DNA of 63,384 nucleotides, counting the filler, from Globobulimina sp. (lineage: Eukaryota), in NCBI GenBank assembly GCA_003354225.1. It is 29 parts of 29 records of this genome, joined end to end, with 100 filler letters (N's around TTAATTAATTAA, not from the genome) between each part and the next. Parts side by side here need not be neighbours in the genome. Positions count along the whole stretch, not along the records: positions 21,901 to 23,989 come from PIVH01009086.1; 28 more parts are not named here. One strand, given 5' to 3'. Both the position numbers and the translations under genes were made by a program. Positions 19,889 through 48,467 of the stretch are shown piece after piece. The first letter of the stretch is position 1, and each line of letters begins with the position of its first letter. Below the pieces are notes generated by a model. That model made no database searches and had not been told where the DNA came from. It saw nothing but the letters and a program-made list of their open reading frames with translations.

Positions 19889-21508
19889 TTAATGTTTATT
19901 TTTAGATGTTATTGTCACAGTGACTGTTTGTCCATTATATTTATTATCATTACTATTATAGATCTCAACATAATTCCCATTAATTCTGTATGTCACAATA
20001 TCGGAACTCGGCAAAATACTCTAACTGAAACCATTTGGATACCAATATTCTAAATTTGTATAAATAATGGTTGGTTTGCTAATCTCTACATTCACATCAT
20101 AAATCAAAGTATAATCCCCACCATTTCTCCAATCAAATTTCATAACCTTGGCATTGCCTGCAACCTTTTGCGCATATGTCCGACTTAAACCTTTTGCAAC
20201 ACCAACATCCAAACTTCCATTTTTACGAAACAAACCATATCCACATCCAGTACATGTCCCATCTGACAATGAGCCAGCAAATGGTTTATATTCCCATCCA
20301 ATCCATGACACCAAATAATTATCACAATAATCCATTGTAACATACATTCCTTCACCATCACCAACATTAAACTCTGTCAAAAAACTAGTCGCATTCAGTC
20401 TTATCCCATCATGAGTTCTTTGCGAAAAATATTTATTTTCATCCCCATCATTAGGCGCTGCAGTAATTAAAACACAATACTTTCCAACAGAAAAAAACAA
20501 AAACACGTCATACGTTTATAATAATGAAACGCAAAAACACTTTTATTTACAAATTCTTGTCCACCGGGAACGTGCGTGAAGCCAATATCATCCAAACTGA
20601 TATTAAACTCATCGGTCCATGTCACTGACTCAAAAAATACCACCCGTTCACTATCATTTCCATATATTACCCGCTGTATTCTATCATAGAAAGGTTGCAA
20701 ATTGTCAAAGTCAGCTCTGCCTATAACAAAATATGTAACTATAATACAATAAATACACAACAAAAATAAATATAGTTTTACCAGGATACATTAAAAAAGG
20801 ATGCTCATAAATGCCTCCAGCCCAGGGTTCATTCATCAATTCAAAGCCGAGAATGCCACCTATTTTATCAAAGTACTTTGCTAAAACACCCCAATAATCT
20901 GCAAATTGATCAGCTAATCCATTGTGATTGTCATAAAGTCTCTGGAATGCAGAAGATGTGGCTTGCGTTGCATAGTAACTGGCCCATGATTGTTTGGCAC
21001 AGTCTTGTTTGGAGGGAATGTGGTCACTGCCGGTGTTGTATGGCGCTGAGAATGGTTCTGGAAAATCCCATACTAAAGGTTGGGTTGCCCAAACTGCTGC
21101 TCCTTCGCCACATAATGCCTCGGATAATACGTCCTGATGAGAATCAACCAATGTTGAAATGTTGTATTGGTTATATGCGGTGCTGATCAATGTTGCTGCG
21201 TTGTTTATATATGTCATATTGTAATAATTTTTGGAAGGTTGGACACCAGGCCACATTACACCTAATCGGATGGCATTTTGTCCCAAAGAATTCAAGAGTT
21301 GCATATCTTGAATGGAAAACGATAGGTTAGCATCGAAATGATCTTGTATTGGTAAATACGGTGAAGACTTATAAACAACGTTTAAACCATGAAAGAAGCA
21401 TTCACGATCATTTAAATCCAAAATACGGTTATTCCTAACACGGAATTTCTCGACTTTTTGTGCTGTGCAATCAAGTAACAGAATTACAAGGACATGTAAG
21501 AGGAACAT
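19889..21508 (-). CDS. Endoglycoceramidase-like GH5 glycoside hydrolase (introns 20721-20781 and 20458-20513; in-frame TAG at 20021-20023)
   Basis: FHGLNVVYK, NAIRLGVMWPG, DSHQD, GFELMNEP (acid/base), AFHYY, FLTEF (nucleophile) and SWIGWEYK. Confidence 0.92.
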
Positions 21509-21900
21509 GATTGAGTAATATATTGAGAAGTGCACCACGTCCAAAAACGTTTTGAGAAATCAAGATATTTACATCTTTAACAAATTCAACAAAAAAAAAG
21601 GTAGATATCATCGAAAATGGTATACTTGAGTGGTGTATATCACTGCAGTCACAACTATTAAGTTGATTTTCATTGTGGTGAACGGACTTCAACTTTTGGT
21701 GTTTATCGCTCACCACAATAAATTAGCGATCAACTCCAAAAGTTGACCACAATGAAAATTAGCGCAATAGTTCAGTTGTGTCTGCGGTGGTTGGCATATA
21801 NNNNNNNNNNNNNNNNNNNNNNNNNNNNNNNNNNNNNNNNNNNNTTAATTAATTAANNNNNNNNNNNNNNNNNNNNNNNNNNNNNNNNNNNNNNNNNNNN

Positions 21901-23018
21901 GAATTAAAAAAACATTTTCTCACTAAACATTGTTTACATTCTGAACGGAAATGCTTTTATTAACGGCATTCGGTAAAATACATCTTTTAACAATATCCCT
22001 TGCAACGACATATCTATGTTTATCGCTTAATTGCCATTTGAATTTGAACAACAACTCCAAAAACAATGCAATATTATCACAGGATTTTCCCTTCAAATAT
22101 TCGAATAAACATTCTCTGCCAGTCGGCGACTTCAAACATTCCTCTAATGATTCTACAAAAGTGAGCTCCATATCAGATGTTGGCTGCATTGGCGCGCATA
22201 ATTTATCCAAATACGCACCCGTCATAATCTTAGCAATCACAGTAAAGACTTGAGCCACAGCGTACTTGCTCTGTTTTGGATTTGTTTTTGTGTTTTGGTT
22301 GACAAATAATGCATATTCAAACTGTTTTTATTTTCTGAACTTGATTGTCATATTGATCGGCAAAAAAATATGAGAAAGTTTCATGTATTGCCTCTAGCAT
22401 TGTCTGGAAATGCTGCATGTGAAGACCCATAGTTTTGTGTAGTACACCAACTGCAGATAAGGCTGAAAATAAATTGATATCATTTTTTAATAAATTGCGA
22501 GTTAAATAGCCAAAATTATCCAAAAATTTTAATGATAGATATTGAGTTTTAATTTGATCATTTTTTAATTTAAATTTGATGATTTGTTTTATGTCGTTAT
22601 CCATTGATGTCATACCAAACAATATCGAACTTCCAACTTCCTGTATGTGACAAAGTGATATACTCAGATTGGGAAAGTACAGAGTGTATAGAATAGATTT
22701 AAGGAAATTGAGGAATAGACAGAATTTAACTAATTGTTGTTGCATTGATAATGGATCAATATTTTCTCTCCAAAAATCTACGACAATTCTTGCAATATTT
22801 TGTGATAAATATATCCCAGTGATACCATTGGTTTTTAGGACCTTTCTGTTCTTTAATGATGAATAACTTTGGTTTAATGGCGTAATTGATCCTGTTGAAT
22901 ATGACAAGCGTGAAACTTGTCGTATTGACGATGGCAATGATAATGTATTGCGATGATTTGATTTGAAATTGTCATGAGATATTTCGGTTTTTTTTGGTTG
23001 GCTGATTTTGCTTCCCAT
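21901..23018 (-). CDS. N-myristoylated globin-RGS(RH) domain fusion protein (introns 22641-22730 and 22271-22340; 3' partial)
   Basis: MGSKIS start. Globin F/G/H helices LSAVGVLHKTMGLHMQHFQTMLEAIHETF...KYAVAQVFTVIAKIM. RGS-like SLEECLKSPTGRECLFEYLK...ALFLELLFKFK...ARDIVKRCILPNA. Confidence 0.78.
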
Positions 23019-23430
23019 GTTGGTTAAAAAACTTTGATAAAAAAACTCTGACTTTAATTATTGTTTTATTAAAGTTTCTGTGCTAATTATTACAGGTTTT
23101 TATGTGACATATTTAATGATAATAAATCATTTAAAGAGAAATGTAAATTACTGTTTGATGAAGCAATCAAATATTCAAAAGATAAAATCAGTGCATTTGA
23201 TACAAACACAGAAGTTAGTTATTAATATAAAGACCAACCCTTATCTTGCAAATGATTCGTGACAACATTGTAATATGGTCAAAGTGCAGTTAGTTTAACA
23301 CTTTATCAAATGTCTTTATTTTGCTGTAACTTTAAAGTACGCAAATGCGAATAAGTGAGCAACAATTAATTTATTACAGTTCTCATAGCAAAACACAATT
23401 AAATAAAAACACATGTCATGCACATTTAGA

Positions 23431-23733
23431 TTAATTGCGTATAACATCAATACGTTCGTTGAGTTTTTTAATTCGTTGAATAGCCATCTGTAATATTTCA
23501 TGTCTGGGCGGAGCTGATTTATGTCTGCGATCTTCAACACCTAATGTTTCTAATAAGTCTTCAAAATAAGAACCTAAATTCTTTCTGCATCTGTTTGTAC
23601 ATAAAATAATTAACATAATCGGTCTTTTGATAACATTTGTATATAGAATCTGACTCAACTTTGTTGCTCTGACATTTCGTTTGTCTCTTTGTTCTCGCGT
23701 TTCTGGGCGACGTTGCCGGTAACGATTTGACAT
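23431..23733 (-). CDS. Small bHLH transcription factor (in-frame intron 23591-23659)
   Basis: Spliced product QRDKRNVRATKCRKNLGSYFEDLLETLG...PPRHEILQMAIQRIKKLNE follows the basic-helix-loop-helix pattern (Max/Myc-like). Confidence 0.7.
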   Translation of the reverse strand: MSNRYRQRRPETREQRDKRNVRATKLSQILYTNVIKRPIMLIILCTNRCRKNLGSYFEDLLETLGVEDRRHKSAPPRHEILQMAIQRIKKLNERIDVIRN

Positions 23734-24237
23734 AGTATCCAAAAGTATTGACAAATGAAAGTAATTTAAATACAGACAATAAGCCGAATCTGCGAAATTA
23801 TTTTACAACACCGACAATATATTAGTTCAGCTGCAATTAACGTTGCCAGTTGCCTTAATACATCGAGAATTTCTGAAATCGCAATATAAAGTAACGTTAC
23901 TGACCAATCTGAAAGAGACCAATCTGAAAGAGACCAATAAGAGCATCATGTTTTCAGCGTCAGATTTTTATTGTTTCTGAGAAACGAAGNNNNNNNNNNN
24001 NNNNNNNNNNNNNNNNNNNNNNNNNNNNNNNNNTTAATTAATTAANNNNNNNNNNNNNNNNNNNNNNNNNNNNNNNNNNNNNNNNNNNNAATTTGTCAAA
24101 CAGAATATACACATGTCAAGAAAGTAAATTTTTGATTGCTTTATTTATTCTTTAACTGTTTAATTGAATCGGGCCGGCCATTTACCTTTAGGAGTTTAGG
24201 AGAAAAGTTTCAAAAACTGTTTGATGAAAAAAATTGA

Positions 24238-47768: not shown

Positions 47769-48467
47769 ACTGCAAAGTTACCAAACGATTTGGTGCTATT
47801 CACGATAGTGACGAAAACAGTATAGTAAGTCTTAAAATCTATGCTCGCAAGTATAAGTTTCGCAAGTGTACTGCTAAAAAATATAGATACAAGAAATAAA
47901 TGTAATGCTATACAACATATATACATATGTATACAAAAAAAAAGATAATATCCACATTCCGCAATCCTTTCCATTACACATCTTCATCCTTTTGGTCATC
48001 TTTAGAATCCGCTTCATCCTTCGAGTCCACAGCAACGCCATGATACTCCACAGCAGGCTCTTCCTCCANNNNNNNNNNNNNNNNNNNNNNNNNNNNNNNN
48101 NNNNNNNNNNNNTTAATTAATTAANNNNNNNNNNNNNNNNNNNNNNNNNNNNNNNNNNNNNNNNNNNNAAAGTCTCGTGTCCAGTGTGTGCTTATTGTAT
48201 TATTCAAAATTCATGCAACGCAGGTTTACAATTAGGCGCTATTATGTGTGGTATCGATTGTGCATTTGGTGCTGTTGCCCTCGGCAGTTTTTATATGATA
48301 AAAGCGAAATGTCCGCACGGATATATGTGGTTAAAGGCACATTGTCCAAATCCGTTTTATGAAAAGAAAGATTCAAGCAGTGATGACTAAAACTTTGTGC
48401 ATTAATTAATTAACATGTAATAATAAAAAACTTTGACTGAAAAACTACGTAACTTAAACTGAGTGTA

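Follow-up and report, generated by a model that had tools for sequence, protein, structure and literature searches.

A transcribed globin-RGS fusion gene from Globobulimina sp. and its proposed role as a gas- or redox-gated regulator of G-alpha

Introduction

Haem gas sensors drive chemotaxis receptors, kinases and cyclases and are nearly all prokaryotic, and RGS proteins are the main eukaryotic brakes on G-protein signalling. Here we describe a gene from Globobulimina sp. (GenBank assembly GCA_003354225.1) in which the two are joined, a globin domain being followed by an RGS domain on a single polypeptide. The gene lies within a stretch of 63,384 bases that was analysed as a whole (the window), on the minus strand of one 2,089-base contig (PIVH01009086.1, positions 21901-23989). 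All positions count along the window, and the encoded polypeptide is referred to as the window protein. A sequence-only reading of this region had proposed a myristoylated globin-RGS sensor, and what became of its claims is reported with the results that bear on them.

Globin-coupled sensors such as HemAT, DosC/YddV and AfGcHK likewise consist of an N-terminal globin with a proximal His, a short linker and a C-terminal signalling output. In the accessible sections of a review of these proteins the outputs are methyl-accepting chemotaxis proteins (MCP), kinases, diguanylate cyclases and adenylate cyclases; the output here is an RGS domain, and the term RGS does not occur in those sections (PMC7475203). 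The present family also differs in its globin, which is of the classical type (27 of 65 members) rather than the protoglobin type (2 of 65, below threshold; Z 10.9-11.6 in structural comparison), and in being eukaryotic, spliced and apparently lipid-anchored. By descent the present protein is not a globin-coupled sensor, and at most it may work like one.

A second likeness is to globin X of metazoans, which according to the same sections is membrane-bound, with a myristoylated Gly2 and a palmitoylated Cys3 (PMC7475203). Like globin X, the family starts with MG in 35 of 44 cases, and some members have a Cys at positions 3-6. Globin X is a single-domain, hexacoordinate protein without a signalling domain, whereas in the present family neither His nor Gln stands at E7 and an RGS domain is attached. 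The redox state of human neuroglobin is reported to control its binding to G-alpha(i/o) (PMC4842972), and neuroglobin is a structural match to the present globin (Z 15.8). Neuroglobin acts in trans, as a single-domain guanine nucleotide dissociation inhibitor (GDI), whereas here an RGS fold is covalently attached, pointing to control of the GTPase-activating protein (GAP) type.

On the RGS side, the best sequence matches to the C-terminal domain fall in the R4 subfamily (RGS2, RGS1, RGS18, RGS16 and RGS4; E 1.2e-10 to 1e-6), and the RGS4 fold was matched with a root-mean-square deviation (rmsd) of 1.9 Å. R4 RGS proteins are small and are recruited to the membrane by their N-termini. In contrast, the N-terminal region of the present family is a whole globin domain, the equivalent of RGS4 Asn88 is hydrophobic, and the window protein has Asn and Ser in the places of Glu87 and Asn128. 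A plant precedent for an RGS domain governed by an attached sensing module is AtRGS1, a seven-transmembrane (7TM) RGS protein whose module is a membrane receptor and not a haem protein, and the globin-adenylate cyclase of Leishmania and androglobin are eukaryotic precedents for the fusion of a globin to signalling or enzymatic domains. To our knowledge, none of these three combines a globin with an RGS domain.

No published globin-RGS fusion was found in literature searches, and supplements, which lie beyond those searches, may list such transcripts. The searches found no literature on the globins of Reticulomyxa, and a search of the ESM Atlas gave no usable match. The globin-RGS protein can be placed with the chimeric and sensor globins, as one whose output domain is undescribed for them in the literature found.

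Gene structure and transcripts

The frame that begins at the ATG at 23018 is open to 22317, and another extends from 22327 as far as a TAG at 21925-21923, both on the minus strand. The sequence-only reading had joined these two open reading frames (ORFs) into one protein through two GT-AG introns. That reading had placed both introns exactly (22730..22641 and 22340..22271), as the alignment of homologues and transcript contigs that skip them confirm, and 311 codons are free of stops once both are spliced out. All of the sequence strings quoted in that reading were found on the minus strand.

Exon 1 (22731..23018, codons 1-96) encodes the start MGSKIS, a Ser/Thr-rich linker, the conserved pre-A motif NGITG, globin helix A and the start of helix B. 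Intron 1 (22641..22730) is 90 nt long and in frame, with the donor GTTAAA and an acceptor ending in ACAG. Exon 2 (22341..22640, codons 97-196) encodes globin helices B to G, and intron 2 (22271..22340) is 70 nt long and in phase 0, with the donor GTTCAG and an acceptor again ending in ACAG. Exon 3 (21926..22270, codons 197-311) codes for globin helix H as far as aa 214 (22217), for a 21-residue linker and for the RGS domain's first half (aa 236-311, 22153-21926), the last recognized by both Pfam RGS and a hidden Markov model (HMM) of the family RGS domain. The whole globin domain, delimited with the family globin HMM, covers aa 67-214 (22217..22820) and spans both introns; helix H, which the sequence-only reading had forming only after splicing, is encoded past intron 2. 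Upstream of the ATG, the 5' untranslated region covers at least 23019..23046, with transcript contigs reaching 23046 (run X2) and 23031 (run X6). An in-frame stop lies at 23060-23058, and no in-frame ATG occurs between it and the ATG at 23018.

Transcript evidence came from the assembled contigs of four public runs aligned to the contig (X1, X2, X6 and X8), of which X2, X6 and X8 are from three studies. Positions 22641-22730 are missing from contigs of X2 and X6, and positions 22271-22340, which end in CT..AC on the plus strand, from contigs of X2, X6 and X8. In these three runs cover is confined to the exons and the sequence up to 23046, with zero cover at 23091-23860. None of the three is on record as RNA; we infer that they are RNA-derived because their contigs are spliced and their cover is exon-only. 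X1, a low-depth and DNA-like run, retains intron 1 unspliced (record 1, 22371-22880).

Record 10 of X2 (671 letters, of which one differs; 99.8% identical) joins exons 1, 2 and 3, and record 22 of X8 (741 letters) runs through exons 2 and 3 and on for another 110 letters. Since each is a single transcript contig, the globin and RGS domains lie on one transcript. Transcripts that failed to join the domains, or a chimeric junction between them, had been named as what would refute the fusion, and what these two contigs show is the domains joined. The locus is thus a transcribed gene of at least three exons that encodes a two-domain globin-RGS protein.

A coding role for the 90-nt in-frame stretch of intron 1 was also considered and is ruled out, as the stretch is missing from the transcripts and from the two closest homologues. 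These homologues, P0001 and P0002 from Bolivina argentea, both lack the corresponding 30-residue insert and both align seamlessly over the exon 2/3 junction.

The transcripts of X6 and X8 differ from the window coding sequence at 37 places, 21 of them synonymous and 16 not, each place being taken singly. Replacements are fewer than random change would lead one to expect, a rough sign of purifying selection that is pooled over the two runs. The two confirmed donors (22730 and 22340, minus strand) both start with GTT, as does the candidate third donor GTTTAG (21928), and both acceptors end in ACAG; a GTT donor with an ACAG acceptor may be the splice-site habit of this organism.

The globin-RGS family

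Relatives of the window protein were collected with a HMMER scan of 1.84 billion representative sequences (clusters at 50% identity), in which the query was the 226-residue translation of exon 1, intron 1 and exon 2. The scan returned 64 proteins at E ≤ 1e-3, including 40 at E ≤ 1e-10, and a word-indexed protein search gave P0001 and P0002 (367 and 368 residues) as the closest homologues, with E-values of 1.3e-43 and 1.5e-43. The sources of 30 among the 65 family proteins were looked up. Named sources were found for 23, all of them benthic Foraminifera of four species (Nonionella stella 11, Bolivina argentea 9, Elphidium margaritaceum 2, Ammonia sp. 1), and the other 7 are metagenome, Logan or MMETSP records. 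Because the rows are clusters at 50% identity, the 11 and 9 rows from single species indicate many paralogues. These predicted proteins show a paralogue-rich family that is known so far from benthic Foraminifera and environmental sequences only. The earlier guess that the protein would suit a sediment protist fits, in that every named relative is a benthic foraminifer.

In a midpoint-rooted FastTree phylogeny of 39 globin domains, which gives a rough picture, the window protein groups with P0001 and P0002 and the species are interleaved. P0019 and P0067, one from Nonionella stella and one from Bolivina argentea, fall in the same 90%-identity cluster, and the explanation may be conservation of great strength or else carry-over from one transcriptome into the other.

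Both domains were found in 39 of the 65 members, with the globin first in all 39 and with linkers of 9-43 residues. The remaining 26 rows are globin-only, and 24 of them are read as fragments because they stop within 25 residues of the end of the globin match; the exceptions are P0039 and P0062. A Pfam scan of the 65 members returned only Globin and RGS, together with two weak Protoglobin matches, and no reductase domain. Four long members (P0032, 974 aa; P0045, 661 aa; P0052, 908 aa; P0068, 993 aa) have extra regions flanking the globin-RGS core. In P0052 an additional RGS domain (residues 314-492) precedes the globin, and no further Pfam family was found in the extra regions of the four.

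The profile check that the sequence-only reading had proposed supports it through the family: members match Pfam Globin and RGS, and the window's own pieces stay below the thresholds. Domain membership of the window protein rests on the family for this reason. Against the family HMMs the spliced window protein matches the globin profile over its full length (positions 1-147 of 147, aa 67-214, E 5.4e-58) and the RGS profile over its first half (positions 2-77 of 132, aa 236-310, E 6.5e-27). The family profiles, the fold matches given below and the order in 39 of 39 members agree with the claim of a globin followed by an RGS domain on one protein, and we regard the architecture and family membership of the window protein as virtually certain.

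The globin domain

Pfam Globin (PF00042) was found in 27 of the 65 members at E ≤ 0.01, with a best value of 2e-8, and its cut-off of 22 bits was exceeded by 3 of 10 members checked singly and also by P0062 and P0070. Pfam Protoglobin (PF11563) was found in 2 of the 65, with a best E of 0.0018, and P0062 reached 18.8 bits against a cut-off of 25. When the family profile was compared with the PDB, it matched Hell's Gate globin I (HGbI, 3s1i) at 1.5e-9 and neuroglobin at 0.014. A phmmer search of the PDB with P0001 alone gave nothing significant (isopropylmalate synthase E 0.87, trout haemoglobin I E 1.6); the trout haemoglobin I row does align the proximal His.

An AlphaFold2 model was made of the closest homologue P0001, and not of the window protein itself, from the 65-sequence alignment. 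Its mean predicted local distance difference test score (pLDDT) is 83.7 and its predicted template modelling score (pTM) 0.65; 255 of the 367 residues are at 90 or above, the globin domain lies above 90 and the first 45 residues are disordered. VIA-align, run against 48,161 chains, matched residues 71-217 to 1x9f_B (Z 16.9, rmsd 2.6, 141 of 145 residues aligned) and the globin to mouse neuroglobin (2vry_A, Z 15.8). Classical globins gave Z values of 15-17, and the sensor-type globins HemAT, AfGcHK and DosC gave 11.6, 11.0 and 10.9. The 50 rows listed by Foldseek against the PDB were all globins, the best being 3s1i_A (template modelling (TM) score 0.88, rmsd 2.2 Å). The structure modelling that had been proposed as a check has thus yielded a confident model of P0001 in which both the 3-on-3 globin fold (helices A-H) and the nine-helix RGS fold are recovered.

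Globin positions follow the alignment of the family profile with HGbI, in which we take Tyr29 and Gln50 of HGbI to be B10 and E7. The proximal F8 residue is His164 (22439-22437), which aligns with the proximal His of HGbI and is His in 60 of 60 homologues. The sequence-only reading had picked out a proximal-His segment, and its by-eye calls of Leu at E7 and of a residue other than Phe at CD1 were borne out by the profile alignment. E7 is Leu131 in the window protein (Leu 15, Thr 12 and Met 5 of 60 relatives) and CD1 is Ile117 (Met 20, Leu 15 and Phe 15 of 57). At B10 the window protein has Leu103 (Phe 26, Tyr 17 and Leu 6 of 51), at E10 Lys134 (Lys 40 and Arg 14 of 59) and at E11 Phe135 (Phe 32 and Tyr 16 of 60). 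On its proximal side the predicted pocket would be able to hold haem, and its distal side is mostly apolar. An apolar distal pocket disfavours stable binding of O2 relative to NO and CO. We consider it likely that the predicted globin domain binds haem.

Helix G holds a second His, His182 of the window protein (22385-22383), which 52 of 58 relatives share. The E helix carries a strongly conserved motif K-F-L-D-M-x-G-W-L-x-R (window 22529-22497), in which Met is found in 54 of 62, Trp in 47 of 63 and Arg in 49 of 63; in the window protein this Met is replaced by Asn and this Trp by Tyr.

The RGS domain

Pfam RGS (PF00615) was found in 31 of the 65 members at E ≤ 0.01 (best 2.7e-14), and its cut-off was exceeded by all 10 members checked singly. 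Against the PDB, the family profile matched RGS2 (1.2e-10) and then RGS1, RGS18 and RGS16 (the four spanning 1e-10 to 1e-6), RGS4 (1.2e-4) and Axin (1.6e-4). In the P0001 model, residues 226-360 were matched by VIA-align to RGS3 (2oj4_A; Z 14.4, rmsd 2.2, 122 of 127 aligned) and residues 232-357 to RGS4 from its complex with Gi-alpha (1agr_H; Z 13.8, rmsd 1.9, 113 of 116 aligned). The same region (226-362) was matched to Axin with Z 14.1 and to SNX25 with Z 12.7. A complex prediction of the P0001 globin domain with haem against the RGS domain scored 0.01; the alignment was unused in this run and only the protein partner was scored.

RGS4 numbering was transferred through the RGS2 alignment of the family profile. 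The residues Glu87, Asn88, Asn128, Asp163 and Arg167 of RGS4 are the G-alpha contacts of GAP-active RGS proteins. The Glu87 position is Glu in 33 of 39 family members and Asn262 in the window protein, the Asn88 position is hydrophobic throughout the family and Ile263 in the window protein, and the Asn128 position is Asn in 32 of 37 members and Ser302 in the window protein. Ser is a natural substitute for Asn128, as Posner et al. in 1999 reportedly noted. The Asp163 position is Asn in 23 of 32 members, as in RGS2, and the Arg167 position is variable (Lys, Arg or Gln). The caveat raised earlier over the RGS motif 'EEN..FW' was well placed, the window protein reading D261-N262-I263..F266-L267. 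GAP competence is putative, and more doubtful for the window copy than for the family.

The N-terminus

Homologues were counted as N-complete when the globin domain is complete at its N-end and preceded by at least 29 residues. Of the 44 that qualified, 35 start with MG and 28 fit the myristoylation pattern, mostly as MGNxxS. The frame from the ATG at 23018 begins MGSKISQ, which fits the PROSITE pattern PS00008 as we take it to read (G-{EDRKHPFYW}-x(2)-[STAGCN]-{P}), with Gly2 at 23015-23013 and Ser6 at 23003-23001, and 19 of the first 66 residues are Ser or Thr. The start and the Ser-rich linker described in the sequence-only reading are therefore both present. Gi-type G-alpha subunits carry the same kind of anchor. 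N-myristoylation of the predicted Gly2 is probable.

The 3' end

The gene runs off its contig, a point that the sequence-only reading had missed. The second ORF ends at the TAG at 21925-21923, but this end is contradicted by the contigs of X2 (whose record 9 runs on for another 433 letters), X6 and X8, all of which depart from the genomic sequence at 21925. The disputed contig end (21901..21925, minus strand) reads TAG-TGA at 21925-21920 in the genome, and the transcripts read through. The transcript continuation on the minus strand, translated by hand, is ...AAT GTT TTG GAG AAA ATG CGT AAT TTG GAA CGG TCC, which gives ...NNV-LEKMRNLERS in frame and agrees with the consensus of the family RGS helix (Leu 20 of 36, Met 20 of 36, Leu 25 of 34, Glu 19 of 34). 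Since the transcripts continue in the frame of the family, the genomic TAG is not the true end of the protein.

Two readings of this end are considered. In one, a third intron begins at AAT|GTTTAG, a third donor of the GTT type; in the other, the last 25 bases of a low-cover contig are of poor quality. These bases (21901-21925) have GAGAAAATG in common with the transcripts, shifted by one base, and this overlap could mark either a poor contig end or an intron start that resembles the next exon. The DNA contigs of X1 have no cover of 21901-22320. The missing half of the RGS domain was not found in the other 28 pieces of the window: tblastn with the 65 family proteins gave 99 matches, all within 21901-23989.

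The source contig and the window

The window is not a single locus. It consists of 29 pieces of about 2.09 kb each, separated by 28 artificial spacers of the form N44-TTAATTAATTAA-N44 (for example 2092-2191, 21801-21900 and 23990-24089). TTAATTAATTAA occurs 29 times in the 63,384 bases, against 0.11 expected, and runs of exactly 44 N occur 56 times; one copy of TTAATTAATTAA, at 48402-48413, has no flanking N and is native sequence. The pieces are apparently ordered by length and neighbours are unrelated, so that synteny across spacers is meaningless. The spacer at 21801..21900, which has no strand, lies outside the gene and separates two unrelated contigs. Position 21901 is a contig end and not a biological boundary, being the first base of the piece 21901-23989.

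At the right end of the contig, positions 23931-23989 are a high-copy repeat with a summed depth of 11,937 in X1, against 0-8 elsewhere on the contig, and there are many loose ends at 23935-23988 that differ among each other. The repeat is probably the cause of the assembly break at this place. An ORF upstream of the gene on the same contig (23434-23802, minus strand, 123 aa) had no Pfam match and no cover in X2, X6 or X8 and is probably not a gene. On the adjoining contig, an ORF at 20711-21559 (minus strand, 282 residues) matched Pfam Cellulase (glycosyl hydrolase family 5; E 7.7e-10, 39.1 bits) and is unrelated to the globin-RGS gene.

Discussion

A gas- or redox-gated regulator of G-alpha would be the most economical reading of a fixed globin-RGS fusion. 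We favour this reading in the form of a lipid-anchored, gas- or redox-gated globin-RGS protein, to which we assign a probability of roughly 55%. A myristoylated Gly2 would tether the protein to the inner side of the membrane, which is where G-alpha subunits are found, and the globin domain would hold haem through the invariant proximal His164. Because Leu B10, Leu E7 and Phe E11 make for a largely apolar distal pocket, the binding of a diatomic gas (NO, CO or O2) or a shift of redox state is proposed as the input. The change would be transmitted through the short linker to the RGS domain, which would then be altered in its binding of G-alpha-GTP and in its speeding of GTP hydrolysis. Ambient O2 or NO, or the redox state, could thereby tune heterotrimeric G-protein signalling, for example in pseudopodial movement along sediment gradients. 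For the central step taken by itself, ligand- or redox-controlled action on G-alpha, we would put the chances somewhat short of even.

A number of observations weigh against the favoured reading. The gene is incomplete in the window, with about 55 C-terminal residues (the second RGS half) lying outside it. The part of the protein seen in the window accordingly lacks the C-terminal half of the domain with its alpha7-alpha8 contacts, including the Asp163/Arg167 region. Exon 3 matches Pfam RGS with E 0.0014 and 19.4 bits, below the cut-off of 23.9; the break in the gene limits this match to profile positions 1-63 of 117. P0001 and P0002 are likewise below threshold (15.5 and 16.1 bits). Searched directly against Pfam Globin, the window pieces gave no match at E ≤ 10, and P0001 and P0002 gave none. 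The family HMMs were built from the same hits that they classify. The best Foldseek E-value was 7.2e-3, no row reached 1e-3 or below, and the RGS fold surfaced only through VIA-align, with which helical models can reach Z values of about 14 without true kinship; the VIA-align matches here span whole domains and agree with the sequence profiles.

Within the globin, CD1 of the window protein is Ile117 and not the Phe that is near-universal in haem globins, in a loop where the alignment may be off by one residue or more. The family has no conserved polar distal residue, E7 being Leu in 15, Thr in 12 and Met in 5 of 60, and its globin is of the classical Pfam Globin type, outside the sensor-globin lineage of the bacterial globin-coupled sensors. 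The window copy departs from RGS4 at the Glu87 and Asn128 positions, and the whole family does so at Asn88. Finally, the binding of haem, lipid and G-alpha and the GAP activity are predicted features, and the G-alpha partner in Foraminifera is putative.

Among the alternatives, the one that survives best is a membrane-anchored haem globin enzyme that converts or detoxifies NO, nitrite or peroxide, with the RGS-homology domain as a docking module only; we regard it as distinctly unlikely. RGS-homology domains of Axin, sorting nexins and G-protein-coupled receptor kinases (GRKs) dock without GAP action. Axin (Z 14.1) and SNX25 (Z 12.7) match the RGS part nearly as well as true GAPs do, and the Asn88-equivalent is lost across the family. 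On the other hand, the best sequence matches of the RGS domain are R4-type GAPs (1e-10 to 1e-6), far ahead of Axin (1.6e-4), and most members keep the Glu87- and Asn128-equivalents. As to the globin, an enzyme would agree with the closest matches, which are single-domain flavohaemoglobin-type and other classical globins (3s1i, 1.5e-9; TM 0.88), and with the Tyr at B10 in 17 of 51 relatives, a residue typical of NO-dioxygenase-type globins. The hosts make NO in denitrification (PMC8153729). No reductase domain or partner is evident, however, Pfam Globin and RGS being the only families in the 65 members.

A two-handed binder of G-alpha is very unlikely. In this scheme the globin would contact G-alpha-GDP in one redox state, in the manner of a GDI, and the RGS domain would take G-alpha-GTP, so that G-alpha is held or handed over in a redox-dependent way. 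Its model is human neuroglobin, which in the ferric form is reported to bind GDP-bound Gi/o-alpha and to act as a GDI, with Glu53, Glu60 and Glu118 called crucial; the same source limits the effect to some vertebrates, zebrafish neuroglobin (Ngb) being without it (PMC4842972). Neuroglobins are among the matches to the globin domain (2vry_A Z 15.8; profile E 0.014), and a fixed fusion of a globin to a G-alpha-binding domain, in one order in 39 of 39 members, is what such cooperation would select.

An equally slight chance is given to a haem-free pseudo-globin, a structural, dimerising or lipid- or protein-binding module serving to regulate or localise an RGS protein that is otherwise ordinary. 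Of 57 relatives, 42 have a residue other than Phe at CD1, the distal pocket varies, and the window protein and its closest homologues fall under the Pfam Globin threshold. Against this, if haem were absent it would be hard to account for a proximal His in 60 of 60 sequences whose identity is otherwise 30-45%; moreover, the helices are arranged as in globins (rmsd 2.2-2.6 Å), and Lys or Arg, the usual haem propionate partner, stands at E10 in 54 of 59. An artefact is scarcely credible, whether through chimeric assembly, through contamination or in the form of a dead paralogue ending at the genomic TAG: the 2.1 kb contig does come from a low-cover assembly (X1 depth 0-6), its last 25 bases do conflict with the transcripts and TAG-TGA is present at 21925-21920, but single contigs of X2 (99.8% identical) and X8 cross the globin-RGS junction, data sets from four named species of Foraminifera show this architecture too, 311 codons are open after splicing, and the transcripts pass the TAG in the frame of the family.

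The gas- or redox-gated regulator can be extended to the family as a whole, as a paralogue-rich set of lipid-anchored, haem-gated GAPs private to benthic Foraminifera, in which the ligand or redox state of the globin would set the lifetime of G-alpha-GTP and the O2 or NO of the sediment would be read without a receptor. We offer this extension tentatively and think it rather unlikely in its full form. Over 30 G-alpha genes have been reported in the rhizarian Bigelowiella natans (PMC5784254). Nonionella stella and Bolivina argentea express the nitrite reductase NirK and NO-converting enzymes in hypoxic or anoxic sediment (PMC8153729).

A conserved globin-RGS fusion would wire gas or redox state directly to G-protein signalling. 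It would also supply an independent, natural argument for the coupling of globins to G-alpha, which has so far been proposed only for neuroglobin; if true, a haem-gated GAP fusion would be a 'Rosetta stone' for that disputed link. The protein is compact, with two domains and about 300 structured residues, and is suited to biochemistry. Its many paralogues occur in protists that migrate through steep gradients of O2, nitrate and sulfide and make NO themselves, and the family would give a testable molecular handle on how foraminifers sense deoxygenation.

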